NCBI GenBank assembly: GCA_038248915.1
Contig: JBBRXB010000004.1
Coordinates: 13,271-77,270 of the forward strand
Direction of reading: 5' to 3'
DNA: 64,000 bases
Origin: Candidatus Limnocylindrales bacterium
GTDB lineage: Bacteria > Chloroflexota > Limnocylindria > Limnocylindrales > CSP1-4
In this document: positions 22,716 to 48,039 of the stretch, in pieces
Position numbering within the stretch: the first letter of the stretch is position 1
Layout of the letters: each line of letters opens with the position of its first letter
The notes under the pieces: generated by a model
Database searches by the model: none
Seen by the model: only the letters and a program-made list of their open reading frames with translations
What the model was told of the DNA's origin: nothing
Made by a program: the position numbers and the translations under genes

Positions 22716-22785
22716 GTCGCGCCAGGCGTGAGGGGCGACGGCGCGGAGGGGACGCGCCGCCGCCATGGGAACTTCGGTGCGGTGC

Positions 22786-23144
22786 TCAGGCCGCGGCTGT
22801 GGCGGCCTCCGCCTCGGCGTCGTCGACGACGAGCGCCTCGTCCTCGTCATCCTCGTCGTCGTCCGACGTGCCCGGGTCGAACGCCGACTCGGGGATGGGC
22901 TCCGAGGCCGGGATCTCGCCGAGCGCCTGCGCCTGGTCCGCCAGCGAATCGGCGGCCTGCTGGGCCTCGTAGTCCTTCTTGCGCCGGCCAGACAGCATCT
23001 CGACGTGCCCGGCGACGATCTCGGTCTTCCAGTGCCGGGCGCCCTTGTCATCGTCCCACGAGCGGGTCTGGAGGCGGCCCTCGACGGCCACCTGCTGGCC
23101 CTTGCCCAGATAGCGGCCGGCGATCTCGGCCAGGCGGTCCCAGG
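22786..23144 (-). pseudogene. ssb: ssb paralogue, 3' piece (codons 60-177 of the reconstructed gene)
   Basis: Minus strand reads [50 protein letters not shown] followed by an acidic tail. SSB-like sequence stops at CCCAGG (23139-23144). The rest of track ORF 22786..23235 is not SSB-like. Confidence 0.8.
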
Positions 23145-23167
23145 TCTGACGTATACTTGGTCGTATT
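23139..23167. repeat. attL of the 12.3-kb element
   Basis: CCCAGG-tctgacgtat-ACTTGGTCGTATT. The 13-mer is the exact reverse complement of 35442-35454. Confidence 0.75.
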
Positions 23168-23196
23168 CGTCGATCCGTCAACGGAGCGAACCGAAC

Positions 23197-24462
23197 ATGA
23201 CCGCCTACGGCTACATCCGCAAGTCCGTCGTCCACGACCCGGCTCGCATGCTCTCACCCGAGATGCAAGAGGCCGCCATCAGGAAGCTCGCTGCGGCGAA
23301 CGGCGACGACGACGTGGTAATCCTCAGCGACCTCGATGTTTCGGGCCGCAAGGGCCGTTCTAGGCGCCCCGGATGGGACGAGTTGCTGCGCGCGGTCGAG
23401 GACGGCGAGTGCAAGAGCGTGTATGCGTACTCGTTGAGCCGGTTCGCCCGCAGCGTCTCGCAACTGGCCGACTTCTTCGAGTTGAGCGAGCGCCAAGGCG
23501 TCAAGGTTCGCGTCGACCGTGACCACATCGATACGTCGACCGCGACCGGGAAGCTCATAGGCAACGTCCTCGCGTCACTCGCGCAGTTCGAGGCCGATGT
23601 AGCGAGCGAGCGAGTCAAGGACGCCTTCGCGGCGAAGCGTCAGCGCGACCCCGAATGGCGCGGACCAGGAAACAGCGCATACGGCGACGAAGCGGGCGAA
23701 GACCCGCTGGTCGTGGTCGCGGCCTTCCGCGACGCGGGCAGTTTCGACGGGGCGGCGCGACTCCTCAACACGCGCGGTGTTCCAAGTCGGTTCTCGAACG
23801 GCCATCTTTGGTCCGGGAGCGTCGTGCGCGGCGTCGTCAAGCGTCACGCTCCGGATGAAGTAGGCCCGATGGTTCGTCGCGGCTCACCAGCCGGGCGCCG
23901 TTCGTTCCGCTTCTCCGGACTCGTCGAGTGCAGTACGTGTCATAAGACGCTCACCGGGTCGCGCGACACCCGGCGTGGCGACGTCCGGTATGCGTGCTCC
24001 CGAGCACGCGTGATCCCGCACGTTCGCGGTTGGGTGAACGAGTCGAAGCTGCTCCCGGTCATTGCCGCCGAAGTCGGCCACGCCGCCGTGGCGATGAAGC
24101 GACTCCAGAAGGGGAGTGCCGAGGACGACGCCGCCCTGGCCACGCTCGCCGCGAAGCGAGCGCGCGTCATCGACACGTACACGGACGGTCTCATCGACAA
24201 GGCCGAGCGCGACCGACGTCTCGCCGACATCGCCGTCGCGGAGTCGAAGCTCTCGACGCGACGATGGATCAAGCGCATCTCGCTCCCGCCCGACATCGAG
24301 ACGGGCGATCCGGCCAAGGTGAACACCTACCTCCGGAGGCTGTTCGAGCGCGTGACGGTCGACATGAGTCAGCCCGCGACGTTCGGCCCGTCGAAGTGGC
24401 TGCCGACGCTCGACTTCGAATGGCGCGACCCGTCGATGCGCGTCGAGGAGGACACCGCCTGA
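23197..24462 (+). CDS. Large serine recombinase (integrase of the 12.3-kb element)
   Basis: ATG 23197 with GGAG 10 nt upstream. Catalytic-Ser motif [27 protein letters not shown]. Cys-rich zinc ribbon [17 protein letters not shown] and a coiled-coil tail. 421 aa. Confidence 0.9.
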
Positions 24463-27995: not shown

Positions 27996-29840
27996 TCAGT
28001 CCATCGGTCCATTCGTCACCTCCGGTGCGTCCGATGCGTCGTCTTCGGCGGAGCGAAGTCGGATGTCGTCGCGCCAATAGCGCCACTCGAAGCTCCGGCC
28101 GACCTTCACCTTCTCGTCGCTTCGACGAAGGAGCGTGAGCCGCATCAACTCGGCGATGCGCTTGCGGCCGTCGCCGATGCCCCACAAGACTTCGAGTTGA
28201 GCCGACGACATGCCGTCGCCGTCGCGCGGCACCCCATCGACCCACGAGAGAAGCGCCGCGTTCCGCTCGTTGGAGGAGTCCACGACCGAGTAGACGTGAC
28301 TCGCCGTGTTGTACTCGACGAGCATCGAGGTCGTTTCGAGGATCCGGCCGCGAACCGTGAGCCATCGTCGCGAGTCGAGGGGGTCCGCCGGGTTGTGGTA
28401 GGTCAGCTCGGCTTGCACGTCGCACGCCGCCGCGATGGCCCCCGAGCCTCGCGTCGCCTCACCGGCGATGCCGCCGCCCTTGCGCGTGTGGTGAACGAGG
28501 ATCACCGCCGCGTCGCGGTCAGCGAGCGCGTGTCGGATCGTCTCGACCGCGGCGGTCGTCTCGCCCGCGTCGTTCTCGTTCTCGATGCCCGCCCAGACGG
28601 CGAGCGTGTCGATGATGACGACGGCCCCGTCGTGGTTCGACACCCACCGCGACGCCGCAGCGAGGGAGTCCGCCAGACCCCAGCCCGCGCGCACGGCATC
28701 CGACCGTTGGACGACCTCCATCGCCGAGAGGCCGAATGCCTTGGTCTTGGTGACGACCGGGACGCCGTATTCCTCGGTCATCAGCAGGAGAGGCGTCCCG
28801 GGACGGACATCGAACTCGCCCAGGAACTTCTCGCCCGTCTCGGCGCATCGCGCCAGATGTCCCAGGAGGGTTGACTTGCCGCCCTTCGGCGGACCGGCGA
28901 CGACCGTCACGCCGCCGGAGTAGGCGACCGGGTAGGCGACCCACGGCACGGTGCTCGGCGTCTCGGCCACGATTTGGGCGATGGGCTTTACCACCTTGCC
29001 GACGTTGGACTCGGGGACGTCGACGTTTCCCGCGAGCACCCACTCGCGCCAGTCCTTCCCGGTCCCCGTGAGCGAGTCGTAGTCGGGCGGCACGATGCGC
29101 GCGGCGAACAGGCCCGCCGTCATCGCGTTCTCCATCGCCTTGGCCGCGCCCTTCTGCCCGGCGTCATCTGCGTCGTAGGCGACGAATACGCTCTCGACGC
29201 CGCGACGCGCCATCGAGCGGAAGTCGCTCACACTCGGCACACCCGACGCAGATCCGGCGGAGTACGCCATCTCGTAGCCGATGCCCCGCAGAGCGATGGC
29301 GTCCGACTCGCCTTCGGTGAGGAGGATGTCGACCGGCATCGCGTCGTCAAGCGGCCAGATGGCCGGGTTGGGTGAGCCGGCGGGCGACCAGCGCCGCTCG
29401 GACGAGCCCGCTTGGCGATGCTTGGCGACGCCCAGACCCGGGAAGTCGTGCGACACCCAACCATCCGCCGTCGCCGAAAGAGGGAAGTCGTCGAGGAACG
29501 CTCGTTCCACGCCGCAATAGGCGGCGTACCACCCGAGCGGGTCGGCCTTCGCGTCGGCCGGGATGGGCTTCGCCGTTGCGGACCGGCGCTTGGTCCGTGT
29601 GATGCGGATGGGCGTCGCCTCGGCGGCTTCGAGGTTCTCGACGACTTGGCGGTAACCCGCGCCACACACCGGGTTGAGGCACTTCACGAGCGTCTTGCCG
29701 GTCTTCTCCGTGATGTGGAGTGAGTCCGAGCCACCGTGAACCGGACACTCGGCGTGAACGTCACGCCGCCCGCTCGTCGAGTCATTCCAACGCGCAATAT
29801 CGAGTCGCTCTGCAAGCCAGTCGAAGTCGTGGTCGCTCAT
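27996..29840 (-). CDS. Primase-helicase fusion (zinc finger + Toprim + RepA/DnaB-like P-loop ATPase)
   Basis: Zinc finger ECPVHGGSDSLHI..CLNPVCG. Toprim LLTEGESDAIAL..AYDADDAGQKG. Walker A GPPKGGKST, VVIIDTLAVW, LVHHTRKGG. Start at ATG 29840 is uncertain; the track ORF extends to 30152. Confidence 0.85.
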   Translation of the reverse strand: MSDHDFDWLAERLDIARWNDSTSGRRDVHAECPVHGGSDSLHITEKTGKTLVKCLNPVCGAGYRQVVENLEAAEATPIRITRTKRRSATAKPIPADAKADPLGWYAAYCGVERAFLDDFPLSATADGWVSHDFPGLGVAKHRQAGSSERRWSPAGSPNPAIWPLDDAMPVDILLTEGESDAIALRGIGYEMAYSAGSASGVPSVSDFRSMARRGVESVFVAYDADDAGQKGAAKAMENAMTAGLFAARIVPPDYDSLTGTGKDWREWVLAGNVDVPESNVGKVVKPIAQIVAETPSTVPWVAYPVAYSGGVTVVAGPPKGGKSTLLGHLARCAETGEKFLGEFDVRPGTPLLLMTEEYGVPVVTKTKAFGLSAMEVVQRSDAVRAGWGLADSLAAASRWVSNHDGAVVIIDTLAVWAGIENENDAGETTAAVETIRHALADRDAAVILVHHTRKGGGIAGEATRGSGAIAAACDVQAELTYHNPADPLDSRRWLTVRGRILETTSMLVEYNTASHVYSVVDSSNERNAALLSWVDGVPRDGDGMSSAQLEVLWGIGDGRKRIAELMRLTLLRRSDEKVKVGRSFEWRYWRDDIRLRSAEDDASDAPEVTNGPMD

Positions 29841-29991
29841 CAGCCCATTCACTTTCAGCAGCCCGATACGCGGTAGGTAGGGACGGCGGGCGGGCTGAGG
29901 ACCCGCCGCCCCGTAGAGGACCCGTCCGAGTTCGCGGGTTCGGACGGCGTGAACATACGCGACCCGCCGGATCGCGCGTGTCGCTGGCCGG

Positions 29992-30216
29992 TCATAGCCC
30001 GGTCCCGCAGTTGGGGCAGACCGCGCCCTCGGTGAGCGACACGGCGTGAAGGTCGCATCCGTGCCGGGCGCAGACATCGCGACCGTCGAGGACGGGCTCG
30101 GTACACGGCTCGATGGACCCGCGCGGGCCGCGCGCCGGGTCGGCCCGTTCATCGGGGCTGTTCGGCCAGCCGACGCCGGTGTGGACGTAGCCAGTGCAAG
30201 CGAGACGGTCCATCAA
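29992..30216 (-). CDS. Small Cys-rich (zinc-ribbon-like) protein
   Basis: 74 aa. Start overlaps the XRE gene stop. High third-position GC. C-terminal CPNCG. Confidence 0.5.
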   Translation of the reverse strand: MMDRLACTGYVHTGVGWPNSPDERADPARGPRGSIEPCTEPVLDGRDVCARHGCDLHAVSLTEGAVCPNCGTGL

Positions 30217-30545
30217 GCCGTCTTCTGGGCGGCGCTCGCCGCCTTCTTCCGCGCGGCGTAGATGACCGCCAGGTCGGCCTCACCTTCGGAGGCCATCTTG
30301 GCTCGACTCGCGGCGATGCCCTCGATGGCTTCGAGGATCTTGATGACGTTCTTCGCCTTGATGTTCACGGCGCGCGCGCGGCGCTCGACCATCGAGACGT
30401 AGCCCTGCGTGACGAACAGCTTTTGGGCCAACTCTGCTTGGCTGACCGCGTTGACCTTCCGGTATGCGGTGACCTCGGCGAGATCGTAGACCGGACCGTA
30501 AGCAGCTTCGCCGACGGGCTGCGGTCGGGTGATGTTGTTGCTCAT
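30213..30545 (-). CDS. XRE/Cro-CI-type HTH transcriptional regulator
   Basis: 110 aa. HTH VSQAELAQKLFVTQGYVSMVER. First gene of the minus-strand replication module. Confidence 0.8.
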   Translation of the reverse strand: MSNNITRPQPVGEAAYGPVYDLAEVTAYRKVNAVSQAELAQKLFVTQGYVSMVERRARAVNIKAKNVIKILEAIEGIAASRAKMASEGEADLAVIYAARKKAASAAQKTA

Positions 30546-30552
30546 GATGTGA

Positions 30553-30592
30553 TAATACGTCTACACATATACCACGGCGAATGTAGGTATTA
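30553..30592. promoter_or_regulatory. Candidate operator (imperfect inverted repeat) in an A/T-rich divergent promoter region
   Basis: TAATACGTCTACA (30553-30565) and TGTAGGTATTA (30582-30592). On the minus strand a TATTAT hexamer lies 6 nt before the XRE ATG, suggesting a leaderless transcript. On the plus strand there is a TGtGATAAT extended -10. Confidence 0.4.
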
Positions 30593-30842
30593 CATCGAGA
30601 GCCCGCAAGACGGTCACGGACGCCGCTTGCGCGTGATCGCGCGTCGTCGAGTCGCCTCAGGCCGGACGGGCCGGAGAACGAGCCGGAGAGTCACGGGCGC
30701 GATAGGTCGAACCGTCCGCGTAAGTCGCAGCTAAGCGCTGATGCCTACTCTCCGAGATGGGCCGCGCTCCGCGCCCGGAAGGTCGATCTCGGGCTCGCCC
30801 GACCAGCCCGTTCCGGGGCGTCGCGGCCCTTATGCTTGAGGC

Positions 30843-31871
30843 ATGGCAGGGAAGGAGTCGTTGGTCCGGGCTAGCCGGGCCAAGAACGACGAGTTCTACA
30901 CCCAGTTGGTCGACGTCGAGGCCGAACTACGGCTCTACCGCGACCAGTTCCGCGGCAGGGTCGTGCTCTGCAACTGCGACGACCCGTATGAGTCTGCCTT
31001 CTTCAAGTATTTCGCGATGAACTTCAATCATCTCGGCCTGAAGAAGCTCATCACTACGAGCTACAGCGGGAGCCCGATCACCGGCGAGCAACTCCGGTTG
31101 CTGGACGTAGCCGGGATGCCCGACAACGCCCCCGAGAAGCCAGCCTACCGGGTCGAGATCAGCGAAGTTCCGGACGCCAACGAGGACGGGGCTACCGACC
31201 TACAGGACGTCGAGTACCTGCTGAAGCACGAGCGCAACGTCGTCAGCCTCTTGGCGGAGGGCGGAGACTTTCGCTCCGCTGAGTGCGTCGCTTCGTTAGA
31301 CGAGGCCGACATCGTTGTCACGAACCCACCGTTCTCGCTGTTTCGCGAGTACGTTGGCCAACTCGTGGGGCATGGCAAGCAGTTCCTCATCCTCGGCAAC
31401 CTCAACGCCATCACGTACAAGGAAATCTACTCACTCATAAGGGACGGACAGCTCTGGCTCGGTCACCGGACCGGCGGGGAAAAGTGGTTCCGCGTGCCCG
31501 ACGACTACGGCCACACGACCGACAAGGGGAAGATCAAAGTGGAGGCCGGGGTGAGGTACCTAGCCATGAAGAACATGGCGTGGTTCACCAACCTGGACAC
31601 CACAAAGCGTCATGAGGCCATGACGCTGTACAGGCACTACACGCCTGACGAGTACCCGACCTACACGAACTATCCGGCCATCGAGGTCGCCAAGGTTTCG
31701 GACATCCCGATGGACTACAGCGGGGCCATGGGCGTCCCGATCACCTTCCTGGACAAGTACAACCCGGAGCAGTTCGAGATCCTGGGGTTCCGCAAAGGCG
31801 ATGACGGCAAGGACCTCTCGATCAAGGGGAAGAGCTTGTACTTCCGAATCCTCATCCGGGCCCGTCCATGA
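30843..31871 (+). CDS. N6-adenine DNA methyltransferase (EcoRI-methylase-like family)
   Basis: 342 aa. N-terminal KNDEFYT. Catalytic motif IV VVTNPPFSLF. Confidence 0.8.
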   Translation: MAGKESLVRASRAKNDEFYTQLVDVEAELRLYRDQFRGRVVLCNCDDPYESAFFKYFAMNFNHLGLKKLITTSYSGSPITGEQLRLLDVAGMPDNAPEKPAYRVEISEVPDANEDGATDLQDVEYLLKHERNVVSLLAEGGDFRSAECVASLDEADIVVTNPPFSLFREYVGQLVGHGKQFLILGNLNAITYKEIYSLIRDGQLWLGHRTGGEKWFRVPDDYGHTTDKGKIKVEAGVRYLAMKNMAWFTNLDTTKRHEAMTLYRHYTPDEYPTYTNYPAIEVAKVSDIPMDYSGAMGVPITFLDKYNPEQFEILGFRKGDDGKDLSIKGKSLYFRILIRARP

Positions 31872-32962
31872 AGATCGACCTGAAGGCGATCACGGTCCGT
31901 GAGGTCGCCGAGGGCTATGGCGACAACGACGAGGAAGGTGTCGTCGGATACGCCGGGCGGCTCGACATCCGGCCCAAGTACCAGCGGGAGTTCGTCTACG
32001 ACGAGAAGAAGCGGAACGCCGTTATCGACACCATTCGCAAGGGCTTCCCGCTCAACGTCATGTACTGGGTGGTCACGGACGAAGGCACCTTCGAGGTGAT
32101 GGACGGCCAGCAGCGGACCATCTCCTTCTGCCAGTACGTGAACGGCGACTTCTCGGTCCCGGTAGACGGCCACCCGATGGCGTTCCACAACTTGTCGAAG
32201 ACGCTCCAGGACCAGATCCTCGACTACACCCTGATGGTCTACCACTGCTCCGGCAGTGACCAGGAGAAGCTCGACTGGTTCCGCATCATCAACATCGCGG
32301 GCGAACGCCTCACCGAGCAGGAGCTGCGAAACGCGGTCTACACAGGACCGTGGCTCTCCCACGCCAAGACGATCTTCTCCAAGTCCAACTGCGCGGCGTA
32401 CCTCCTCGGCAACAAGTACGTCAGCGGCTCGCCAATCCGGCAGGAGTACCTGGAGACCGCTATCTCGTGGCTATCGGGCGGGAAGGTCGAGCAGTACATG
32501 TCGGCCCATCAGCACGACCCGAACGCCAACGAGCTGTGGGCCTACTTCCAAGCGGCGATCGCGTGGGTGACGCTGACCTTCACCACGTACCGCAGCGAGT
32601 TGAAGGGCATCGACTGGGGCACCCTCTACAACCAGTTCAAGGACGGTCTCTTCGACACCGACCAGCTGGAAGGTGAGATCAAGGTGCTGATGATCGACGA
32701 CGACGTCACGCGCAAGAAGGGCGCCTACCAGTACGTCCTGACCCACGACGAGAAGTACCTCGCGATCCGCCAGTTCACGTCAGGGATGAGACGCGCTGCG
32801 TACGAGCGACAGGGCGGAATCTGCCCCGTCTGCAAGAAGCACTATGAGATTGAGGCGATGGAGGCCGACCACATCACGCCGTGGTCGAAGGGCGGACGGA
32901 CCAGCGCGGAGAACTGCCAGATGCTGTGTCTCGAGGACAACCGGCGCAAAGGTGCGGTCTAG
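31868..32962 (+). CDS. DUF262 (ParB/GmrSD N-terminal-like) + HNH endonuclease fusion
   Basis: ATG overlaps the methyltransferase stop (ATGA). DUF262 hallmark VMDGQQRT. C-terminal HNH CPVCKK..EADHITPWSKGGRTSAENCQMLCLEDNRRKG. Confidence 0.8.
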   Translation: MKIDLKAITVREVAEGYGDNDEEGVVGYAGRLDIRPKYQREFVYDEKKRNAVIDTIRKGFPLNVMYWVVTDEGTFEVMDGQQRTISFCQYVNGDFSVPVDGHPMAFHNLSKTLQDQILDYTLMVYHCSGSDQEKLDWFRIINIAGERLTEQELRNAVYTGPWLSHAKTIFSKSNCAAYLLGNKYVSGSPIRQEYLETAISWLSGGKVEQYMSAHQHDPNANELWAYFQAAIAWVTLTFTTYRSELKGIDWGTLYNQFKDGLFDTDQLEGEIKVLMIDDDVTRKKGAYQYVLTHDEKYLAIRQFTSGMRRAAYERQGGICPVCKKHYEIEAMEADHITPWSKGGRTSAENCQMLCLEDNRRKGAV

Positions 32963-32976
32963 GCTGAACTGAGCGT

Positions 32977-32986
32977 CCCCCCCCCC
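32977..32986. repeat. C10 homopolymer
   Basis: Ten consecutive C starting 15 nt after the HNH gene stop. A C6 run follows at 33018-33023. Confidence 0.9.
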
Positions 32987-33183
32987 GGCCTCGGCGAGCG
33001 CGTCGTCGGAAGAGCGGCCCCCCGCGCTCCGCCCCGGAGGAACGATCTCGGGCATGGCCTGACCAGCCCACTCCGGGGGCGACGCGGTCCAAGGAGTCGA
33101 GCAAGGGTCGCCGCCCGAACCGCACGGAACGGACGTAGGACTCCGTGTTCATGCCGTTCCCGCTCCTCCCAGCGCCAACTCGC

Positions 33184-33213
33184 TTGACGACCGCGGCCGC
33201 GCCATGCTATATC
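33184..33213 (+). promoter_or_regulatory. Candidate promoter of the three-gene cassette
   Basis: TTGACG (33184-33189), 18-nt spacer, TATATC (33208-33213). Confidence 0.3.
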
Positions 33214-33349
33214 GAGCTCATCAATCCGTCACGCCACCATACCGGCGGCGACGGCCAACATGGCAAGACCGCGCGGTCGTGCGTGTGGACGATATGCGGG
33301 TCGAACATGAGCTGGCACGGCCCGCAGATGGAACGGAGTAGTGGAGTCC

Positions 33350-33964
33350 ATGAGTGAACCGGAACCGAGCAAGGAGTCGGTCGCCGACATCCTTGCCGAA
33401 GCCATTGCCGCCGTGAATGCGGCCGGTGTCCCAGCCGAGCTGAAGGAGGCGGCCTTCTCAAAGGCGGTCGATGTCATCATGGCGAGGCGTACGGCCGAGA
33501 CGGCCGGCAGCATGGGGACGGCGGGCGTTGCCCATGCCCCGGCCGTCACGCCCGGCGCGACGGCGCTCACCGAGGGGGACGTGGTCGGACTCATCGCCGC
33601 TCGGCTCCGCCTCGACCGCGAGGTGGTCGGCGAGGTGTTCGATGAGACGGACGGGAAGCTCGACGTCATCGTGCCGCCGCGCAAACTGGCCGCGGGCAAG
33701 GCTCCCGCCGTAAAGCAGCTTGCCCTCCTTGTGGCCTCAGCCCGGCAGGCTGCGGGCATCGAGGAGTGGACGGACGCCGACGACATCCGCCAGTTCGTGG
33801 AGGAGTTCAAGAGGTACGACCAGGCCAACTTCGCATCGACACTCAAGCAGATGGACGACATCTTCCGTATCAAGCAGACGGGACGCAAGATCACCGTCAG
33901 GTTGGGGCGGCCCGGTTGGGACCGGGCGGCCGAGCTGGTCACCACGCTCGCGGGGGAGGGATAA
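33350..33964 (+). CDS. Cassette protein 1, unknown function (C-terminal winged-helix-like module)
   Basis: ATG 33350 with GGAG 11 nt upstream; the track ORF begins at 33341. 204 aa. C-terminus ..KQMDDIFRIKQTGRKITVRLGRPGWDRAAELV. Confidence 0.6.
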   Translation: MSEPEPSKESVADILAEAIAAVNAAGVPAELKEAAFSKAVDVIMARRTAETAGSMGTAGVAHAPAVTPGATALTEGDVVGLIAARLRLDREVVGEVFDETDGKLDVIVPPRKLAAGKAPAVKQLALLVASARQAAGIEEWTDADDIRQFVEEFKRYDQANFASTLKQMDDIFRIKQTGRKITVRLGRPGWDRAAELVTTLAGEG

Positions 33965-33966
33965 CC

Positions 33967-34629
33967 ATGACGGACGAGACGAAGGCTACGGCCTCGGTCG
34001 TCGCCGAGCCCGACGATGACGACGCCGAGCTTGAGGCGATGGGCGCGATCACGAAGGCGCTCAAGCCGCTGACGCCGGCTACGCGGCAGCGCGTCATCGG
34101 TTGGGCTGCCGGCAAGTACGGCGCGGCTATCGCGTCAGCAGCGACCGGACTTCCTGGTCTTGCAGTCGGCGGACTCGGCGGCCGGGCCGCTTCGGAGTTG
34201 CCCGTCGCGGCCAAGAAGCGGCGCAAGACGGTCCGAAAGAACGGCGTCGGGGCCGTCGCGCCTGCGGTCGGCAACAAGCCGAAGGGAGCGCCGGGTCACG
34301 ACAAGACCCTGAACCTCCACCCGGCGGACAGGCAGTCGTTCAAAGACTTCGTGGGCGAGAAGAAGCCGCGGGACAACTTCGTGGAGCACAACGTCGTGGC
34401 GGTCTACTGGCTGGGGCAGACTGCCGAGATCACGGACGTGACGACGGACATGGTCTTCACGTGCTATCGGGGCGTGTCGTGGAAGCTCCCGGGCGATCTT
34501 CGGAACAGCCTCGCCAAGACGGCCCACGACAAAGGCTGGCTGGACACGAAGGACTCCGACGACATCAAGATCACACCATCAGGGCTGAACTTCGTTGAAC
34601 GTGACCTCCCGCCGAAGACCAAGGCGTAG
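33967..34629 (+). CDS. Cassette protein 2, unknown function (acidic N-terminus, basic KKRRK linker, C-terminal winged-helix-like module)
   Basis: ATG 33967, 2 nt after the upstream TAA. 220 aa. C-terminus NSLAKTAHDKGWLD..IKITPSGLNFVERDL. Confidence 0.65.
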   Translation: MTDETKATASVVAEPDDDDAELEAMGAITKALKPLTPATRQRVIGWAAGKYGAAIASAATGLPGLAVGGLGGRAASELPVAAKKRRKTVRKNGVGAVAPAVGNKPKGAPGHDKTLNLHPADRQSFKDFVGEKKPRDNFVEHNVVAVYWLGQTAEITDVTTDMVFTCYRGVSWKLPGDLRNSLAKTAHDKGWLDTKDSDDIKITPSGLNFVERDLPPKTKA

Positions 34630-35443
34630 GCGCCCTGCGGTCGCCATCGCGGCGGCCGCCCCGACCACGCCGACGATCACTCCGGCGACCGCGCTCGTTG
34701 CGGTCCCGCCGTCGCTGCGCGACCCCTTGATCGCCGCGCTCAACGAAATCGCCACGAACTTCGCCGCTCACAAGTGGGAGCCGTCCGAGTTGAACGGGGG
34801 CAAGCTCTGCGAGACGGCCTACACCATCCTCCGAAGCCATGTGGACGGGACATGGGCCGCCAAGCCGAACAAACCGCGTGACTTCGTGACCGCGTGTCGC
34901 GACTTCGAGAACGCGGACAAGACGAAGTTCCCGCAGTCTGTTCGGGTCACGACTCCACGCTTGCTGATGGCGCTCTACGAGATCCGCAACAACCGCGGCG
35001 TTGGCCACGCCGGTGGCGACGTAGACGCCAACCACATGGACGCCACTCTCGTGTTGACCGGGGCGAAGTGGGTCGTCGCGGAGTTGATCCGCATCTTCCA
35101 CGGCGTGACTACGGCGGAGGCGACGGCCATAGTTGACGCACTTGTCGAGCGGGTCGTCCCGACCATCTGGACCATTGGTGCAACCCGTCGGGTGCTAGCA
35201 ACCGGCCTGTCGATGAAGGACAAGACCCTGCTCTTGCTCTACGCGTCGGCGGATTGGGTCAGCGAAGCGGACCTCGTCGGCGCCATCGAGCACTCGAACG
35301 CCTCCGTCTACCGACGAGATGTACTCGCGACGGCCCACAAGGACCGGCTCATCGAGTACGAAGCCACGAACCGCCGGGCGCACATCAGCCCGCTGGGTGT
35401 GGACTACGTGGAGAAGCGACTCGGGGCGCACCTCGTCGCCTAA
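34595..35443 (+). CDS. Cassette protein 3: HEPN-like (Abi_C/AbiJ-type RNxxGxxH motif) N-domain + winged-helix C-domain
   Basis: LMALYEIRNNRGVGHAGG (motif at 34985-35008). C-terminus VLATAHKDRLIEY..AHISPLGVDYVEKRL parallels cassette protein 2. Start uncertain (TTG 34595, GTG 34601 or a later TTG). The TAA stop overlaps the attR 13-mer. Confidence 0.6.
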   Translation: MNVTSRRRPRRRRPAVAIAAAAPTTPTITPATALVAVPPSLRDPLIAALNEIATNFAAHKWEPSELNGGKLCETAYTILRSHVDGTWAAKPNKPRDFVTACRDFENADKTKFPQSVRVTTPRLLMALYEIRNNRGVGHAGGDVDANHMDATLVLTGAKWVVAELIRIFHGVTTAEATAIVDALVERVVPTIWTIGATRRVLATGLSMKDKTLLLLYASADWVSEADLVGAIEHSNASVYRRDVLATAHKDRLIEYEATNRRAHISPLGVDYVEKRLGAHLVA

Positions 35444-35470
35444 TACGACCAAGTGGACGCGAAACCCAGG
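35442..35470. repeat. attR of the 12.3-kb element
   Basis: AATACGACCAAGT-ggacgcgaaa-CCCAGG. Mirror image of attL: 13-mer, 10-nt spacer, core. Confidence 0.75.
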
Positions 35471-35561
35471 CGACGACGGGATGGTACTCCGAGCGCTCCT
35501 TGCCGCCACCGATGAACTCATTGCTCGCCACGGTGAACGTCGTCATTGACTCAGTTACCCC
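35465..35561 (-). pseudogene. ssb: ssb paralogue, middle piece (codons 29-60)
   Basis: Minus strand reads G-VTESMTTFTVASNEFIGGGKERSEYHPVVAW. Bounded by ACCCC (35557-35561) and CCCAGG (35465-35470). An in-frame TGA lies just upstream at 35571-35573. Confidence 0.75.
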
Positions 35562-36847
35562 ATCGGTACATCATGTCGGCGTGAGACGAGCCGTCGCGTA
35601 TCTCCGCAAGTCGAGGGTTGACCCGGGCACGCGTGACGCGTCATGGGAGACCCAGGAGGCCAAGGTTCGCGCCTTGGCCGCCCGCCACGGGGACACCGAC
35701 CTTGAGCTAATGAGTGATTGGGGTCGGTCTGGACGGGGAGAGAAGACCCGTCTACGACCCGAGTATCGGCGCCTCCGGGGGATGATCGAGGCAGATGAGG
35801 TATCCGTCCTCTACAGCTACAGTCTGAGCCGGCTGGCGCGGTCACTCACAGAGTACGCATCGCTCGCCGAGTTGTGCCGGGAGCACGGTGTCCAGGTTCG
35901 GCTCGACAAAGAGGGGGAATTCGACTACGGCTCAGCGTCCGGTCGATTCACGGTCGGCATCTTGGCGTTGCTTGCCCAAATGGAAGCTGAATTGGCGCAG
36001 GAGCGCGCACGCGACACCGTCCAGGCGCGGCGTGCCCGCGGCGATCACATTGGGTCAGCCGGCTACGGGAAACGCCTCCACAACGGAACGTTAGAGGATG
36101 ATCCGCGCGAGAGCGTCGAAGTCGTGGCGGCTGCGTATCGGGAGGCCGGAGGATTCGCCGGGGCCGCCCGCATCTTGAACACCAAAGAGGTGCGTTCGAA
36201 GTTCGGCAAGAAGTGGAGCGGGACCACGGTCCGCCGCGTCCTAACCACCGCGGCGCCTCAGGAGTTGGCGGGACGGCCCGTGGAGGCCCGTGTCAAGCAG
36301 CGCGGCACGTTCACGCTGTCACGCATTCTCCGTTGTCCCTGCGGGCAGATCATGACCGGGCGACACGGCCGCGGCTCCCGCAAATACGGACTCTACGGCC
36401 CCTACGCGAGCTACCAATGCTACCGGGGCCGATACGAGTCGAACCACCCGCGGCCATACATGGTCAGCGAACGCGAGATCTTGCCGTGGGTTGTGGCCGA
36501 GGCCGACCGACTCCGCGTACCACATCACAAGTTCGATTCCGACGCCGATCCGGATCGGCGGACGGCTCTGGAAGAACGACGCAGACGCGTTATCGACAAC
36601 TACGAGGACGGTGTGATCGAGAAGTCCGAACGCGATGCAAAGCTCGCGGCGATCATCACCGAGCTGGAAGGTCTCGCGGCCGCCGAGCGTGCCGACGTCA
36701 TCCCGCCAACGATCGATTGGACGTGGGAGCCGGCCATCATCAACGAGGTATTGCGAGCGCTCTGGAACGTTGTGGAACTCGGGCCCGACCTCCGCCCAGT
36801 CCGCGCGACCTGGTTGGTGCCGGAGTGGCGAGCGTGAGACCCACCCC
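35557..36847. mobile_element. 1.29-kb insertion consisting only of a large serine recombinase gene
   Basis: Identical ACCCC at 35557-35561 and 36843-36847, in the same codon phase of ssb. 1286 bp between equivalent positions. The LSR ORF fills 35581-36837. Confidence 0.65.
35581..36837 (+). CDS. Large serine recombinase (second paralogue)
   Basis: GTG 35581 is the first start inside the insertion. VAYLRKSR catalytic Ser, YSYSLSRLARS, GSASGRF. Zinc ribbon CPCGQIMTG..YQCYRGR. 418 aa. Colinear with the first LSR by eye. Confidence 0.85.
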   Translation: MRRAVAYLRKSRVDPGTRDASWETQEAKVRALAARHGDTDLELMSDWGRSGRGEKTRLRPEYRRLRGMIEADEVSVLYSYSLSRLARSLTEYASLAELCREHGVQVRLDKEGEFDYGSASGRFTVGILALLAQMEAELAQERARDTVQARRARGDHIGSAGYGKRLHNGTLEDDPRESVEVVAAAYREAGGFAGAARILNTKEVRSKFGKKWSGTTVRRVLTTAAPQELAGRPVEARVKQRGTFTLSRILRCPCGQIMTGRHGRGSRKYGLYGPYASYQCYRGRYESNHPRPYMVSEREILPWVVAEADRLRVPHHKFDSDADPDRRTALEERRRRVIDNYEDGVIEKSERDAKLAAIITELEGLAAAERADVIPPTIDWTWEPAIINEVLRALWNVVELGPDLRPVRATWLVPEWRA

Positions 36848-36931
36848 GATGGGTGTATAATGCCACTCTATCTGCCCGCGTCGCGCGACCCATCTGATGG
36901 GACTAACCGTCGGACCAGCGATTGGACCCAC
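36843..36931 (-). pseudogene. ssb: ssb paralogue, 5' piece (codons 1-29)
   Basis: GTG 36931, then MGPIAGPTVSPIRWVARRGQIEWHYTPIG-V. The ..YTPxG matches the SSB beta1-beta2 region. The N-terminal similarity is weak. Confidence 0.6.
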
Positions 36932-36963
36932 GCGGTCAACGGAACAAAGCTCGGTCAGGTCGT

Positions 36964-37012
36964 GACCCGGTTTCTTTAGGCGAACTGTGTTCGCCCGCGA
37001 GAAAGCCGGGTC
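36964..37012. promoter_or_regulatory. Nested imperfect palindrome between the ssb start and the divergent small gene
   Basis: GACCCGG-TTTCT-..-GGCGAAC-tgt-GTTCGCC-..-AGAAA-GCCGGGTC. Ends 5 nt before the ATG at 37018. Confidence 0.4.
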
Positions 37013-37017
37013 TCTTC

Positions 37018-37266
37018 ATGAATCGAGAACCTAAACACGTTCGGGACCTACAGCGGCAAGGCGGGAGGGAGGGGGCGAGGCGACGTTGGGGCTCGCACGT
37101 GCCTCAAACGGTCAGGATGGGTGATCTCAGCTCCGAGCAGCGGCGTCTGGTCGTCGCCCTCATCGAGGCAGCACGCGCCTCGCGAGCAGAGGCCGCCTCG
37201 GCGACCATTGAGACGGCCGAGACGGCCGAGACGGAGGGTCACGGCAATGACCGCCCGACAGACTGA
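37018..37266 (+). CDS. Small hypothetical protein
   Basis: 82 aa: MNREPKHV..GDLSSEQRRLVVALIEAARASR. Contains a 9-bp tandem repeat (gagacggcc) encoding ETAETAETE. Start uncertain. Confidence 0.45.
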   Translation: MNREPKHVRDLQRQGGREGARRRWGSHVPQTVRMGDLSSEQRRLVVALIEAARASRAEAASATIETAETAETEGHGNDRPTD

Positions 37267-37531
37267 GGCTAGCAGACAGCACGTCGGTCGCTTCGAGCAG
37301 ACCTGCCCGGCTTGCGGGATCTCGGAAGGCGCTGGTTCGTATTGCACGTCCTGCCTGTGCCCGATTTCCGCGGTTCACTGGCACGCCGCGATCCGCTCGG
37401 CTAGGCAGATTGCCACTACTGAGTGGATGACGGCTCACAGACCAAGGATTCGCCGAGAGCCGGGGCCTACAGCCCACAAGCCTCGGACTCGCACGCCTGC
37501 GATCCCGCGCCGCCAGAGGCATCGTCGATGA
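37247..37531 (+). CDS. Small zinc-ribbon protein
   Basis: 94 aa. CPACG..CTSCLC. Overlaps both neighbours (operon-like). Confidence 0.45.
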   Translation: MTARQTEASRQHVGRFEQTCPACGISEGAGSYCTSCLCPISAVHWHAAIRSARQIATTEWMTAHRPRIRREPGPTAHKPRTRTPAIPRRQRHRR

Positions 37532-37785
37532 GCATCAAATTGATCAGCCGTGCCTGGGAGGTGAACGGGATCAGCATGGCCGCGAAATTGCTCCTGATTG
37601 CTCTGGCGGACCACGCCCACGACGACGGCGGGAGCTGCTACCCGTCCTCCCAAAGGTTGGCAAATCGTCTCGGTTGCTCACGGCGGCACATCTGGACCCT
37701 ACTCCAAGAGCTCGAGCGGGCCGGCCTCGTGGCCAGACGTTCGGGAGGCCATCGCTCGACCAACCAGTACACCTTGCGGCTTTGA
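37528..37785 (+). CDS. Helix-turn-helix protein (HTH_36/DnaD-like; replication or regulatory)
   Basis: ATG overlaps the upstream TGA. 85 aa. AKLLLIALADHAHDDGGSCYPSSQRLANRLGCSRRHIWTLLQELERAGLV. Confidence 0.65.
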   Translation: MSIKLISRAWEVNGISMAAKLLLIALADHAHDDGGSCYPSSQRLANRLGCSRRHIWTLLQELERAGLVARRSGGHRSTNQYTLRL

Positions 37786-37795
37786 AACGCCGAGC

Positions 37796-37897
37796 TGTCA
37801 CGTGACAACAAGGTGACAGTAGGAACGGCAGTTCCTGCCGCTACCAAACGACAGTTCCTACTCACTGGGAGCCCCGGTTCCCACCCTTAGTAGGAAT
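37796..37897. repeat. Iteron-like repeat cluster plus 12-bp palindrome (candidate origin or operator array)
   Basis: TGTCACGTGACA (37796-37807). AGTAGGAAC (37818-37826) and its complement GTTCCTACT (37854-37862). AGTAGGAAT (37889-37897). CAGTTCCT twice (37829-37836, 37852-37859). Confidence 0.5.
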
Positions 37898-38257
37898 GTG
37901 AGTGCCCGCCAACCAATAGAACCGCAAATGAACCGTTATTAGCCGTCGGGTCCGGTTCCGGAGTCTTGGGACTCCGTCACCGGATGAATGGTCGGAGGAT
38001 GAACTGGAAATCCTCGGGATTCGACGGACCTTGGAACAGCAGACCTCGAATCGTCTAGGGGCATGGTGTCATGACCCAGCCGATCGTACCGAGAACACAT
38101 TCTCAACCTCGTCGTCGTAGTGGTTGATAACCTCGATCGCGACCCCGCCCGCTATTGGCTCGGCGCCGATCCGCTCCGGGGTTGTCATCCGGCCTCGAGT
38201 CGCATCCTCAAGCTCCGACCACGCATCTGAGGGGGCTACACTGACTGGCCACGGAGG

Positions 38258-41522: not shown

Positions 41523-42650
41523 ATGACGACCTCGCGGCGGCCACGCGTGCGTGCTACGGCGCCCGCCCGCCGACCTGGATCGGTTTGGGGCCGTGCTTTC
41601 AGCCGCTCATGTCTCGCGGCTACCGGCACGTCGCACGGGCCGAGGAGCAGCCCCATCGCTAAGAGCGTCGGCTCTCGGTCGTTGCACGGTCACCCTCGAC
41701 TGTCGCGCCGGCCGTCGGCTGTCGCGTCCGACCGCCCCGATGCGCTCGATGCCCTCGCGTCCACGATCGTTCGGCGCGGTGACTCGCCCGAGACGCGTCG
41801 CGCCTACCGGCGAGATCTCGCGACATTCCTCGGGTGGCTCGCGGCAACAGGACAATCTTGGAATGCCGTAACCGCTACGGAGCTCGACGAGTACCGAGAG
41901 TGGCTGGCAACGCGGTACGCCAGGACCACGACGAACCGGCGACTCGTTGTCGTCCGAGGCATGTTCGCGGAGGCGAGGCGGCGCGGCCTGCTTCTCGACG
42001 ACCCCGCTGCAGGCCTCCGGAGCATAAGGGGCCGCGACGATCGCGACGGCGGCGCATTGACGCGCGGGCAGGCTCGCGACGTCCTGGATGCCATCGCTGG
42101 CGACCTGCGGCGATCGTCGCATCGACTCCTCGCCCAGCGGGACCTCGCTGTCGTTTCGCTGCTGGTGCGGACCGGTATCCGCCGGTCGGAGCTGACGGGC
42201 CTCCGCGTATCGAGCGTCGGCATGGCGCTGGGTCACCACATTTTGAGCATTACCGGCAAAGGCAACGTCGTCCGAACCGTCAAGGTCCCACCGGACGTGT
42301 CGCGCCTGATCGAGATATGGCTCGTGGCGTCCAAGGAAGTCGGTGTTGAGCTGACCGGCGATGACCCACTCTTTGTAGAAGTCCGCAAGGGCGGCCACAT
42401 CCCTGGCGATCGCCCGCGCTCGGACCGGGCGATTTACGCCATCGTCGAACGTCGGCTGCGTGCCGCCGGAGTCGAGCGCCTTGGACCGCACGGCATGCGC
42501 GCAACCTTCGTGACGCTCGCCCTCGAAGGTGGAGCGCCACTCCACTTGGTTCAGCGGGCCGCTGGGCATGCTGACCCAAGGACGACCGAGCGCTACTGGC
42601 GACGCAAAGATGGTCTCGATGACAACGCGGTCGATTACCTCAAGCTCTAA
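41523..42650 (+). CDS. Tyrosine recombinase (XerC/D / phage-integrase family)
   Basis: SAM-like N-domain RAYRRDLATFLGWL. Catalytic residues in RTGIRRSEL, HGMRATF, AGHADPRTTERYW. The true start is probably downstream of 41523 (for example TTG 41682). Confidence 0.8.
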   Translation: MTTSRRPRVRATAPARRPGSVWGRAFSRSCLAATGTSHGPRSSPIAKSVGSRSLHGHPRLSRRPSAVASDRPDALDALASTIVRRGDSPETRRAYRRDLATFLGWLAATGQSWNAVTATELDEYREWLATRYARTTTNRRLVVVRGMFAEARRRGLLLDDPAAGLRSIRGRDDRDGGALTRGQARDVLDAIAGDLRRSSHRLLAQRDLAVVSLLVRTGIRRSELTGLRVSSVGMALGHHILSITGKGNVVRTVKVPPDVSRLIEIWLVASKEVGVELTGDDPLFVEVRKGGHIPGDRPRSDRAIYAIVERRLRAAGVERLGPHGMRATFVTLALEGGAPLHLVQRAAGHADPRTTERYWRRKDGLDDNAVDYLKL

Positions 42651-42792: not shown

Positions 42793-44436
42793 GTGCAGAC
42801 GAACGTCCTCTACTACGGCGACAACCTCGGCATCCTCCGGGAACACATCCCGGACGGGTCGGTTGACCTTGTGTACCTCGACCCCCCGTTCAACTCGAAC
42901 GCCGACTACAACGTCATCTTTAAGGACGAGTCGGGCCGCCAATCGGATGCCCAGCTGCTCGCATTCGAGGACACGTGGCATTGGGGACCCGGGACGGCAG
43001 CCCACTTCAACTACCTGACCAACACCTCGCTCCACCATGGGCGCGTGCCGGAGGCGGTCTCCTCGATCATTGGGGCGCTCCGGCAAGGCATCGGGACGAA
43101 CCAGATGCTCGCCTACCTCGTGGAGATGACGGTCCGGCTTGTTGAGCTCCACCGGGTCTTGAAGCCGACCGGCTCACTGTGGCTCCATTGCGATCCGACC
43201 GCTAGCCATTACCTGAAGCTCGTACTCGACGCGATCATCGGCCCGGAGAATTTCCGAAACGAGATCGTCTGGAAGCGAACCTCTGCCCACAGCGATAGCA
43301 AGCGGGCCGGGCGCATTCACGACGTCCTACTGTTCTACGGCAGGTCGGCGAGGACGGTCTGGAACAAGGTTTACCAGCCGTATGACGAGGAGTACGTCGA
43401 GCGGTACTACCGCTACAAAGACCCCGATGGGCGGCGGTACGCGTCGGGGGACGTAGCGGCCGCTGGCGCGGGACCAGCTCGTGTCTTCCGTGGCGAGCTC
43501 CGCGAGCCGCCTCCCGGCTCGCACTGGCGCTTCAGCCAGCAGAAGCTCGACCAATACATCGCGGAGGGGCGAATCTATTTCACACCCAACGGTTTCCCTC
43601 GATTGAAGCGGTACCTGGACCAGATGGAAGGAACGCCGCTGCAGGACCTCTGGGCCGACAAAGGCGTCCAGCCCGTCGTCTCGTGGTCCAGCGAGGGCCT
43701 CGGGTACCCGACGCAGAAGCCGGTCGCGCTCCTCGAACGCATCATCGCGGCGAGCTCGAACCCCGGCGAAGTCGTACTAGACCCATTCTGCGGCTGCGGG
43801 ACGGCGCTGATCGCGGCGCAGAAGCATGGCCGCCGATGGATCGGGATCGACGTCACCCACCTGTCCATCGCAGTGATGCGGGCGCGACTCCGCGACTCAT
43901 TTCCGGAACTCGGGGACGTTCCGGTTCTCGGAACGCCAACCGAGGTCGAAGGCGCGAAGATGCTGGCGGCCGAGTCCCTCGACGGACGATACGAGTTCCA
44001 GTACTGGGCGCTCTCGCTGATCGACGCCCAGCCCATCGGCGACAAGAAGAAGGGCGCTGACGCCGGGATCGACGGTCGCCTGACGTTCACCGACATCGGG
44101 AGCAAGGTCCGGCCGGTGCTCGTCTCGGTCAAGAGCGGGCACGTCAACGTCTCACAGGTCCGCGACCTCATCGGGACGATGCAGCGCGAAGACGCGCCCA
44201 TCGGCGTCTTCCTGACATTGGAGGACCCGTCGAAGCCGATGCTGGCCGAGGCCGCGTCTGCCGGGGTCTTCCACTCGGACGTCTCCGGCATGGACTACTC
44301 CCGGGTCCAGATCCTCACTGTGGAGGAGCTCCTCGTGGGCCGCCGCCCGGTCCTTCCGCTATTGGTCCTCCCGACCTACCAGCAGGCCCCGAGGATCGAG
44401 CAAGAGTCACCTGGACAAGAGAAGCTGTTCGGCTAA
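42793..44436 (+). CDS. Beta-class N6A/N4C DNA methyltransferase fused to a C-terminal Mrr-like (PD-(D/E)xK) nuclease-fold domain
   Basis: GTG start. Motif IV VYLDPPFNSN precedes motif I DPFCGCGTALIAAQ. C-terminal GADAGIDG..VLVSVKSG. Confidence 0.8.
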   Translation: MQTNVLYYGDNLGILREHIPDGSVDLVYLDPPFNSNADYNVIFKDESGRQSDAQLLAFEDTWHWGPGTAAHFNYLTNTSLHHGRVPEAVSSIIGALRQGIGTNQMLAYLVEMTVRLVELHRVLKPTGSLWLHCDPTASHYLKLVLDAIIGPENFRNEIVWKRTSAHSDSKRAGRIHDVLLFYGRSARTVWNKVYQPYDEEYVERYYRYKDPDGRRYASGDVAAAGAGPARVFRGELREPPPGSHWRFSQQKLDQYIAEGRIYFTPNGFPRLKRYLDQMEGTPLQDLWADKGVQPVVSWSSEGLGYPTQKPVALLERIIAASSNPGEVVLDPFCGCGTALIAAQKHGRRWIGIDVTHLSIAVMRARLRDSFPELGDVPVLGTPTEVEGAKMLAAESLDGRYEFQYWALSLIDAQPIGDKKKGADAGIDGRLTFTDIGSKVRPVLVSVKSGHVNVSQVRDLIGTMQREDAPIGVFLTLEDPSKPMLAEAASAGVFHSDVSGMDYSRVQILTVEELLVGRRPVLPLLVLPTYQQAPRIEQESPGQEKLFG

Positions 44437-47178: not shown

Positions 47179-47339
47179 TAACCATTTCGCCGGCTTATGC
47201 CGATCGGTGGGTGGCTTTCGCTCCCCGGAGTGCGGCGTAGGCCGTCATCGAGACATGCGTCACTGTAGGCTTGGCTCGCGCGGACGGACTAAAGCAGACT
47301 GAGGCGGAACCCGACTACCCCAGGGCGTGGGATGCCCGC

Positions 47340-48010
47340 AATCCCGACCGATGCTCTACATCGACGTGGGGCAGAACCCGACCACCGTGCACCAGCCGCT
47401 CTAGTTTCGCCACGACCGTAGGCGGGTGGAGCCTGCAGGGTCGTCTCAGATGTGCGCCCGTGAGCCCCCGGACTCGAGGCTTTTGCCGTATCTCCCTTGT
47501 ACGTTTGTCCCACCGGGAGCGTGGCCGGACGAGGCGTCCGGGCAAGAGCGATCCGGGCGACGCGTTCGCGATCGCGCGGGTGACCCTGGCTGAACCGGAC
47601 CTGCCCCCGGTGCGCCTGGCCGACCGGACCCGCGACCTGCAGCTCCTTGCCACCGCGCGGGATGCGGTCGTGGTCACCCAGACCCAGGCCCGCAATCGGC
47701 TCCACGCCCACCTCCTCGTTCTGGTGCCGGGATACGGGTCGACTGTCGCCCACCTGGTCACGGGACCCGAGCTTGCCCGTGCCCGCCGGCTGCTGCGGGG
47801 ACACCGGGGGATCGCGACCGACCTTGCCCGCGCCGAGCTCGCCGAGGTCATCCGGCTCAGGCGGAGGGCGGATGCCCTCGAGCGCCAGATCCGCTTTCTC
47901 GTGGGCGACGACCCGCTGCTCGTGATCCGGGGCTGCGGACACCTCTCGGCCGCGGCCCTCCGGGGTGAGTCGGGCGAGGTGTCCCGGTTCCCCTCGTCCG
48001 ACGCGTTCGC
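47340..48010 (+). pseudogene. Degraded IS110-family transposase
   Basis: MLYIDVGQ.. then an in-frame stop. Then GKSDPGDAFAIARV and ..RNRLHAHLLVLVPG.. in track ORF 47271..48287. The C-terminus is replaced by IS256-like sequence. Confidence 0.6.
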
Positions 48011-48039
48011 GAGACCGCGTTCCTGCGCTTGCTGGTCGG

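Follow-up and report, generated by a model that had tools for sequence, protein, structure and literature searches.

A widespread family of predicted HEPN-type proteins with putative winged-helix partners, represented by a three-gene cassette of a Candidatus Limnocylindrales bacterium

The 64,000-nucleotide (nt) stretch of DNA analyzed here (in the following, the window) stems from a Candidatus Limnocylindrales bacterium of the Chloroflexota (GenBank assembly GCA_038248915.1, contig JBBRXB010000004.1, positions 13,271 to 77,270 of the forward strand). It carries a cassette of three open reading frames (ORFs) on one strand (33184-35443), whose products we refer to as P1, P2, and P3. Judging from sequence comparisons and structural models, we consider it probable, if far from certain, that this cassette is a conflict module of the toxin or abortive-infection (Abi) type, in which P3 would act as a HEPN ribonuclease (RNase) that is either restrained or directed by its partner protein(s). 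The gene order, the short overlaps between the genes, the co-inheritance of P3 with a partner, the predicted folds, the invariance of a putative catalytic motif, and the patchy spread of the family over many phyla are what the comparisons and models show. The functional components of this reading, namely RNase activity, toxicity, binding of the partner to P3, a trigger, and an anti-phage effect, are what we infer.

In the mechanism that we propose, P3 would dimerize to form a metal-independent HEPN endoribonuclease; such activity, exerted by a composite active site in a dimer, is characteristic of the HEPN superfamily. The partner, or partners, would bind P3 and either keep it inactive or direct it. 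The probable site of contact with P3 is an N-terminal hairpin of the partner, which is a candidate P3-binding piece because it is the only element common to all partner subtypes. The winged helices, together with a basic linker of the partner, may bind nucleic acid, be it an operator or a sensed ligand. Phage infection, or the loss or titration of the partner, could serve as the trigger that releases RNA cleavage and growth arrest, as in toxin-antitoxin or abortive-infection systems.

Size and distribution of the P3 family

P3 anchors a large, widespread, and unnamed protein family, as sequence comparison shows. A word-seeded search retrieved more than 3286 homologues, each of which bears the label 'hypothetical' and lacks a Pfam domain, and an exhaustive profile search recovered at least 1361 representatives of clusters formed at 50% identity, of which 962 reached E <= 1e-10. 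Full-length representatives are mostly about 250-270 amino acids (aa) in length, with about 255 aa as the typical size of P3 across the family. The family is sparse, yet it reaches many phyla: P3 was found in 358 of the 185,579 species genomes that were scanned, and its carriers belong to the Chloroflexota, Actinomycetota, Pseudomonadota, Acidobacteriota, Planctomycetota, Cyanobacteria, and Bacteroidota, as well as to the Nitrospirota, the Omnitrophota, Bdellovibrio, and several lineages of the candidate phyla radiation (CPR; Patescibacteria). Across phyla, the P3 proteins are 50-60% identical. An archaeal homologue is encoded by plasmid PL131 of Natronomonas pharaonis (WP_011324391.1; locus L090, 3914-4786) and shares 27% identity with the HEPN-like domain of P3 over 143 aa. 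The gene for this archaeal protein adjoins that of an ISH6-like transposase. A 381-aa variant of P3 (P0261) was considered as a possible partner-P3 fusion and was set aside, since its ORF seems to be frameshifted or misannotated.

Predicted fold and putative catalytic motif of P3

The AlphaFold model of P3 (pLDDT 88.9) comprises a helical bundle (aa ~39-183, nt 34709-35143; helices 39-57, 61-84, 97-106, 114-132, 147-169, and 173-183) that leads into a winged helix at the C-terminus (aa ~190-275, nt 35162-35419). When this model was compared by Foldseek with the structures deposited in the PDB, HEPN proteins, whose fold is an up-and-down bundle of four helices, led the list of matches for the bundle, with TMt values of 0.45-0.63 and with E >= 0.05 throughout. 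They include 2hsb (probability 1.00, TMt 0.58), 1ufb, 1wol (TMt 0.63), the HEPN domain of sacsin (3o10), the AbiV RNase (9bj5, 9bj6, and 9bj7), and the HepT toxin (8xdj); other helical bundles are listed too. The C-terminus of the model matched domains of the winged helix-turn-helix (wHTH) class from MarR, IclR, and ArsR proteins, and weak Pfam matches of the wHTH kind were found in P3 homologues. A Foldseek search of P3 against viral structures yielded generic wHTH and HEPN-like matches only.

In an alignment of 45 P3 sequences, the block LYE[IV]RNNRGVGH.GG[DE]V[DN].N.MDA is invariant. It contains the segment R131-N-N-R-G-V-G-H138 (codons 34985-35008 of the window), which by its sequence is a HEPN-type catalytic motif of the form R-N-x5-H (Rx6H). 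The rule for such motifs is Rx4-6H, with a polar residue (N, D, or H) right after the arginine (PMC3710099), and R131-N132-x5-H138 of P3 satisfies it. A preliminary description of the locus, made from the sequence alone, had singled out this motif and had let its proposal depend on conservation among homologues; R-[polar]-x5-H is indeed kept in all 120 close homologues and in 96 of the 102 full-length distant ones, and the archaeal homologue retains it as YDIRNNRDSVH. The spacing is identical to that of RNEYGDAH in SadR, an Abi_C RNase of S. aureus in which each of the substitutions R225A, N226A, and H232A abolishes both RNase and defence activity (PMC13590631).

Sub-threshold matches to Abi_C (PF14355) were obtained for 9 of the 45 P3 homologues (12-13 bits versus a cut-off of 24; E 0.016-0.17), and these weak matches map exactly onto the R-N-x5-H segment. 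P3 of the window itself gave no match to Pfam Abi_C at E <= 1 or at E <= 10. On computational grounds, the structural reading that fits P3 best is 'HEPN-like, Abi_C-like': HEPN structures rank at the top of the matches, although weakly, and the motif is conserved. No search placed any of the three proteins in a known non-defence family.

Partner proteins and architectures of the module

Across the loci that we compared at the sequence level, the evolutionary core unit is the pair of a partner gene and P3. The partner is a same-strand ORF of 180-210 aa that ends at the start of P3, often with a 4-nt overlap, and it was detected with subfamily hidden Markov models (HMMs) in at least 78 of the 82 loci with usable upstream sequence. 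About 58 loci possess one partner and about 20, i.e., about a quarter, possess two of some type; in most loci it is a P2-type gene that lies directly upstream of P3. When about 65 loci were classified by the C-terminal type of their partners (with L008 added from the subfamily-HMM scan), a P2-type gene with P3 was found in 42 of them, two P2-type genes with P3 in seven, a P1-type gene with P3 in four, and the arrangement of the window, P1-type plus P2-type plus P3, in five (L007, L008 = L092, L017, L051, and L065); L072, which combines a P1-type with an F2-type partner, was left out of the five trio loci. The trio, which had initially been described as a unit, therefore does recur at about five other loci, but it is a minority (about 6 of about 80 loci, the window included). 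The unit is the pair, and P1, as a probable P2 paralogue, would represent no independent third function.

Partners have diverged much faster than P3, with mean pairwise identities of 27% for the partners versus 54% for P3 at the same loci. Their distances co-vary (Mantel r 0.52, p 0.001).

AlphaFold predicts for P2 an N-terminal two-helix hairpin (aa 17-51, nt 34015-34119), a linker (aa 57-104, nt 34135-34278) that is disordered and bears a patch of the sequence KKRRK, and, at the C-terminus, a winged helix (aa ~110-215, nt 34294-34611). Foldseek matched this winged helix weakly with linker-histone H1/H5, MarR/RovA, MntR, and MCM8 (all E > 1e-3), and weak PadR matches were obtained for P2 as well. 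A relationship among the C-termini of all three proteins had been proposed at the outset. For P2 and P3, a winged helix is predicted in both models, and their mutual sequence match is marginal: it extends over 23-26 columns (hhalign E 7e-4 to 3e-3, probability 11-26%; BLASTP E 0.007) and pairs ..IKITPSGLNFVE.. with ..HISPLGVDYVE... P1, when compared directly with P2 and with P3, showed no significant similarity to either and is connected to P2 only transitively. Profile comparisons of disjoint subfamilies link F1 (P2) to F3 (95.5%), F3 to F5 (97.1%), and F5 to F4 (P1; 97.9%), each link spanning nearly the full length; because of this chain through two intermediate partner subfamilies, P1 is regarded as a distant paralogue of P2. 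A direct hhalign probability of 96% was discarded as an artefact, as L059 was present in both alignments, and the comparison was repeated with disjoint sets. One further partner subfamily, F6 (~140 aa), is essentially a winged helix alone, devoid of hairpin and linker, and constitutes the extra (second upstream) gene in the two-partner loci L040, L050, L067, and L076.

Genes and promoter-like block of the cassette

The three genes are all located on the forward strand of the window. P1, an upstream partner protein of subfamily F4/T2 (204 aa), is encoded at 33350-33964 (start codon ATG; alternative GTG at 33341), P2, the canonical partner of subfamily F1/T1 (220 aa), at 33967-34629, and P3, the predicted RNase effector (280-282 aa), at 34595 (TTG) or 34601 (GTG) to 35443. 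P1 and P2 are separated by 2 nt, and the last 29-35 nt of P2 are shared with the start of P3, so that the tight three-gene spacing noted earlier is borne out. P3 has no in-frame start further downstream than 34595/34601, and in an alignment its Arg-rich N-terminal extension is kept in close relatives, so that the P2/P3 overlap is real. Since the GC content at third codon positions (GC3) is 0.85 in each of the three ORFs and homologues exist for each of them, P1, P2, and P3 are true genes and not chance ORFs. P1, for which 31 homologues were found, is rich in alanine (18% Ala) and acidic (pI 5.0), and P2 has an acidic stretch ahead of KKRRK, both as had been described; all peptides quoted in the preliminary description, LYEIRNNRGVGHAGGDVD among them, are present in the translations.

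None of the three proteins matched an HMM of Pfam, PADLOC, NCBIfam, or PHROGs at E <= 1. PADLOC-DB v2.0.0 contained no family for P1, P2, or P3 at this threshold, in agreement with the initial statement that no named defence system has this composition, while the neighboring methyltransferase (MTase) and restriction endonuclease (REase) do match. Sequence profiles of the P1, P2, and P3 families returned nothing meaningful from the PDB, and our literature searches found neither a description of the P3/partner family nor an experiment on any of its members.

A promoter-like block on the forward strand (33184-33213) precedes P1 by about 135 nt. It consists of TTGACG as -35 element (33184-33189), an 18-nt spacer, and TATATC, preceded by TG, as -10 element (33208-33213). 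A scanner for consensus promoters made no call at 33184-33213 because the -10 element ends in C. However, the sequence proposed earlier as a candidate promoter is exact, and a corresponding block, TTGACA-N17-TGnTATCTC, lies upstream of the P1-type genes of L007, L017, and L092, whose P1 proteins are only ~40% identical to that of the window (regions compared: window 33150-33250; L007 8625-8740; L017 1902-2017; L092 8665-8785). Such conservation across divergent loci is, at the level of sequence, better evidence than a match to a consensus. An ATC[AG]TCAA element follows downstream, and jointly the two show stronger conservation than the coding sequence next to them. In the window, the 5' leader (33215-33349) is longer by ~90 nt and contains several imperfect palindromes, e.g., at 33263-33282.

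Genomic setting and neighborhoods

In the window, the cassette resides in a mobile-element and defence-island setting. Upstream of it lies a Type II-like restriction-modification (R-M) pair on the same strand (30843-32962), consisting of an EcoRI-type N6-adenine methylase (30843-31871; Pfam PF13651, 2e-130) together with an endonuclease of the DUF262/GmrSD_N-HNH kind (31868-32962; PADLOC REase_II, 3.6e-146); their genes overlap by 4 nt. The HNH part of the endonuclease gave additional weak matches to Cas9/IscB HNH domains. A gap of 380 nt, which contains the conserved promoter block of the cassette, separates the R-M pair from the cassette. A segment of ~11 kb, with a large serine recombinase gene on each side (22765-24462 and 35581-36837, both in one orientation), carries the cassette and the R-M pair as well as two reverse-strand genes, a primase-helicase-like one of the Toprim/AAA_25 type (27996-30152) and one for an HTH_3 regulator (30213-30545). 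A 12.9-kb metagenome contig (L086) is identical, with the same gene order as the window segment. Farther along the window are genes for an HTH_36 protein and a tyrosine integrase (41523-42650), accompanied by a fusion of an N6_N4 MTase with an Mrr-type nuclease domain (42793-44436) and by two transposase ORFs of the IS110 family (47271-48287, the weaker match, and 48333-49562). The GC content is 0.60-0.66 over the 31-47 kb region versus ~0.70 in the flanks. The R-M-like pair and the mobile-element setting that had been proposed from the sequence are thus confirmed by Pfam and PADLOC matches and by the recombinase, integrase, and transposase genes. Within the downstream serine recombinase gene, a sub-threshold Rfam match to the Guanidine-II riboswitch (36232-36280; E 0.3, 22.8 bits versus a cut-off of 32) is almost certainly due to chance.

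When the ORFs within 7 kb of P3 were clustered for about 80 loci, no conserved neighbor other than the partners emerged. We also scanned 150 genes beside the module, taking up to two on either side at about 38 loci; among them are a few genes for integrases, Fic/SoFic, PIN, AbiEi, DarTG, dGTPase, and MTases/REases. Defence-island contexts are provided by the window (R-M pair, recombinases), L089 (TIR/SEFIR, PLD-SNF2, IS66), and L094 (DndB, MTase, AAA_15/23 ATPase), and L087 and L092 represent insertions among housekeeping genes. In L089 (6821-10777), two partner-like segments that directly precede an intact P3 are separated by an IS66 element (TnpB_IS66 and a DDE transposase), and genes for a PLD-SNF2 helicase and a SEFIR/TIR protein are found nearby. 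The R-M pair and the serine recombinase are both missing beside close relatives of the window trio, so that the cassette moves on its own. Hence, by comparison of the loci, the association with R-M and mobile-element genes is local and not a trait of the family. The earlier argument that the location of the cassette fits a defence function holds for the setting in the window, but this setting is not conserved in relatives, the neighborhoods of which are mixed.

Comparison with known systems

Among described systems, the AbiJ proteins and SadR, which carry Abi_C domains, share with P3 the R-N-x5-H spacing, the helical HEPN-like bundle predicted for P3, and the weak Abi_C matches on the motif; with the module as a whole they share a patchy distribution and occasional R-M or defence-island neighbors. 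However, P3 scores below the gathering threshold of PF14355 (0 bits for the window protein, 12-13 versus 24 bits for some homologues). Moreover, the HEPN domain of AbiJ and SadR is C-terminal, behind an AbiJ-NTD, whereas in P3 the predicted bundle comes first and the winged helix after it, and AbiJ and SadR are single proteins, whereas P3 is nearly always accompanied by one or two partner genes. Because of the sub-threshold scores, the opposite domain order, and the partner dependence, P3 does not, as judged by sequence and model, qualify for PF14355.

HepT/MntA, a type VII toxin-antitoxin (TA) system, and RnlA/RnlB resemble our module as two-gene operons with a HEPN RNase toxin (here a predicted one) that are autonomous, mobile, and patchy in their distribution, and the P3 model resembles HepT and related HEPN structures (8xdj, 2hsb, 1wol, and 1ufb). 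The partner, with its predicted hairpin, disordered linker, and winged helix, is neither an MNT nucleotidyltransferase nor RnlB-like, and no nucleotidyltransferase match was found for P1 or P2 in Pfam or NCBIfam. Further differences are the winged helix that P3 itself is predicted to possess and the duplication or truncation by stop codons that its partner sometimes shows. The lactococcal Abi/type III TA system of AbiV has two components and is likewise built around a small HEPN effector, and AbiV structures (9bj5, 9bj6, and 9bj7) are among the matches of the P3 bundle; yet AbiV lacks the canonical histidine of Rx4-6H, which P3 possesses, and it is neutralized by RNA, whereas the partner of P3 is a protein. 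A scan of 30000-38000 for an RNA antitoxin matched no Rfam family; no dedicated search for repeats or structures was run.

Evidence against the proposed function and alternative explanations

Several observations weigh against a HEPN RNase conflict module. P3 relatives were found neither in a scan of IMG/VR nor by tblastn in 50,697 phage records, and tblastn against 72,556 plasmid records retrieved a single, distant match, the archaeal one. No HMM library identifies P1, P2, or P3 at threshold, and neither the P3 nor the P2 model has a Foldseek match in the PDB at E <= 1e-3; helical bundles can resemble HEPN folds in a non-specific manner. For a toxin or a defence effector, P3 shows an unusual degree of conservation, and many loci lie among housekeeping genes, e.g., those for aconitase, a tRNA synthetase, RNase E, and FtsW. 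Furthermore, partner genes with in-frame stops occur beside an intact P3 in three lineages (L008 = L092, L016, and L024). In L092 (9364-9951, equivalent to L008 9412-10026), the partner is terminated by a TGA after about 140 aa, and the exact P3 is present in 13 contigs; the partner gene of L016 (~1800-2460) has one such stop and that of L024 (~400-1110) has two. L008 is the same sequence as L092 and was therefore dropped as an additional case. All of these stops fall beyond the N-terminal hairpin, and the genes that carry them could be pseudogenes, be expressed by readthrough, or encode functional truncated partners. The stops in the partners and the conservation of P3 leave room for a sensor/adaptor model or for an antitoxin that consists of the hairpin only. 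In the former, which we put forward tentatively as a possible variant, the module would be a new, widespread anti-phage (Abi) system and not a classical TA system. A linker-histone-like winged-helix partner with a basic tail, present as one or two diversifying paralogues, would act, bound to nucleic acid, as sensor or adaptor and license the highly conserved HEPN-wHTH RNase. In this variant, an antitoxin role of the partner would not be obligatory, since P3 remains intact next to partners that are truncated by nonsense codons.

A bicistronic layout that puts the antitoxin first and has short overlaps, an upstream partner that evolves fast and combines an intrinsically disordered region (IDR) with a fold of the DNA-binding type, a conserved promoter block that could contain an operator, the recombinase-bounded element in the window, and neighbors that are often other TA genes (PIN, Fic, AbiEi, DarTG) would all suit a plain TA system for the addiction or stabilization of mobile DNA, with P3 as HEPN toxin, P2 (with or without P1) as a proteic antitoxin whose winged helix would autoregulate the promoter, and no dedicated anti-phage role. 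The small upstream gene, the tight or overlapping operon, and the joint inheritance seen in the Mantel test fit a type II TA system in particular. However, this explanation looks rather doubtful to us in view of the near absence of the family from sequenced plasmids and phages, of the tandem partner paralogues in about a quarter of the loci, which are unusual for type II TA systems, and of the stop-carrying partners in three lineages, in which an indispensable antitoxin is not apparent, although the retained hairpin makes a truncated antitoxin possible. It is also not truly exclusive of the favored HEPN conflict module, from which it differs only in biological role.

We judge it unlikely that P3 and its partners are non-enzymatic, i.e., DNA-binding regulators or nucleoid-associated proteins of integrated elements, in which the bundle of P3 would serve as a ligand- or protein-binding sensor, like the non-catalytic HEPN domains of MtlR and sacsin. 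Every globular C-terminal domain that we modelled is a winged helix, the partner resembles the globular domain of linker histones with a basic tail, P3 is highly conserved, the HEPN assignments are sub-threshold, and many contexts are of the housekeeping kind, all as expected for such proteins. But non-catalytic HEPN domains typically lose Rx4-6H (PMC3710099), whereas R, N, and H of P3 are nearly invariant across phyla and are found in Archaea as well. In addition, there is no conserved target gene or neighboring regulon, and the patchy spread suits selfish or conflict modules better than regulators. That the cassette directly follows the R-M pair on the same strand, both in the window and in the identical metagenome contig, raises the question of a backup suicide effector tied to that pair (the EcoRI-like MTase and the DUF262-HNH endonuclease), similar to HEPN proteins in R-M operons or to PrrC/EcoprrI; solo AbiJ-type HEPN genes in R-M operons have been reported by Anantharaman et al. 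(PMC3710099), and MTase or REase genes neighbor the module at a few homologous loci. Such a tie is very improbable, given the 380-nt gap and the separate conserved promoter block, the close trio homologues that lack any R-M neighbor, and the failure of any R-M family to recur as a neighbor in about 80 loci.

Significance

HEPN RNase conflict modules are already known as a kind. The P3 family, the order of a HEPN-like domain followed by a wHTH domain, and the partners composed of a hairpin, an IDR, and a wHTH domain are covered by none of Pfam, NCBIfam, PADLOC v2, PHROGs, and the literature that we searched; annotation that draws on these databases would leave P1, P2, and P3 unnamed. If P3 is an active RNase under the control of its partner, the repertoire of HEPN conflict systems would gain a sizeable and unusually conserved family that extends from the Actinomycetota and the Chloroflexota as far as the CPR and also has a haloarchaeal relative, if a distant one. 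It would also gain an undescribed partner architecture, a predicted hairpin, basic IDR, and winged helix, which is sometimes duplicated. With its two or three small genes and an obvious putative catalytic triad, the family presents a clean target for experiments, and the combination of a slowly evolving effector with fast-evolving partners could reveal how HEPN nucleases are restrained or triggered.

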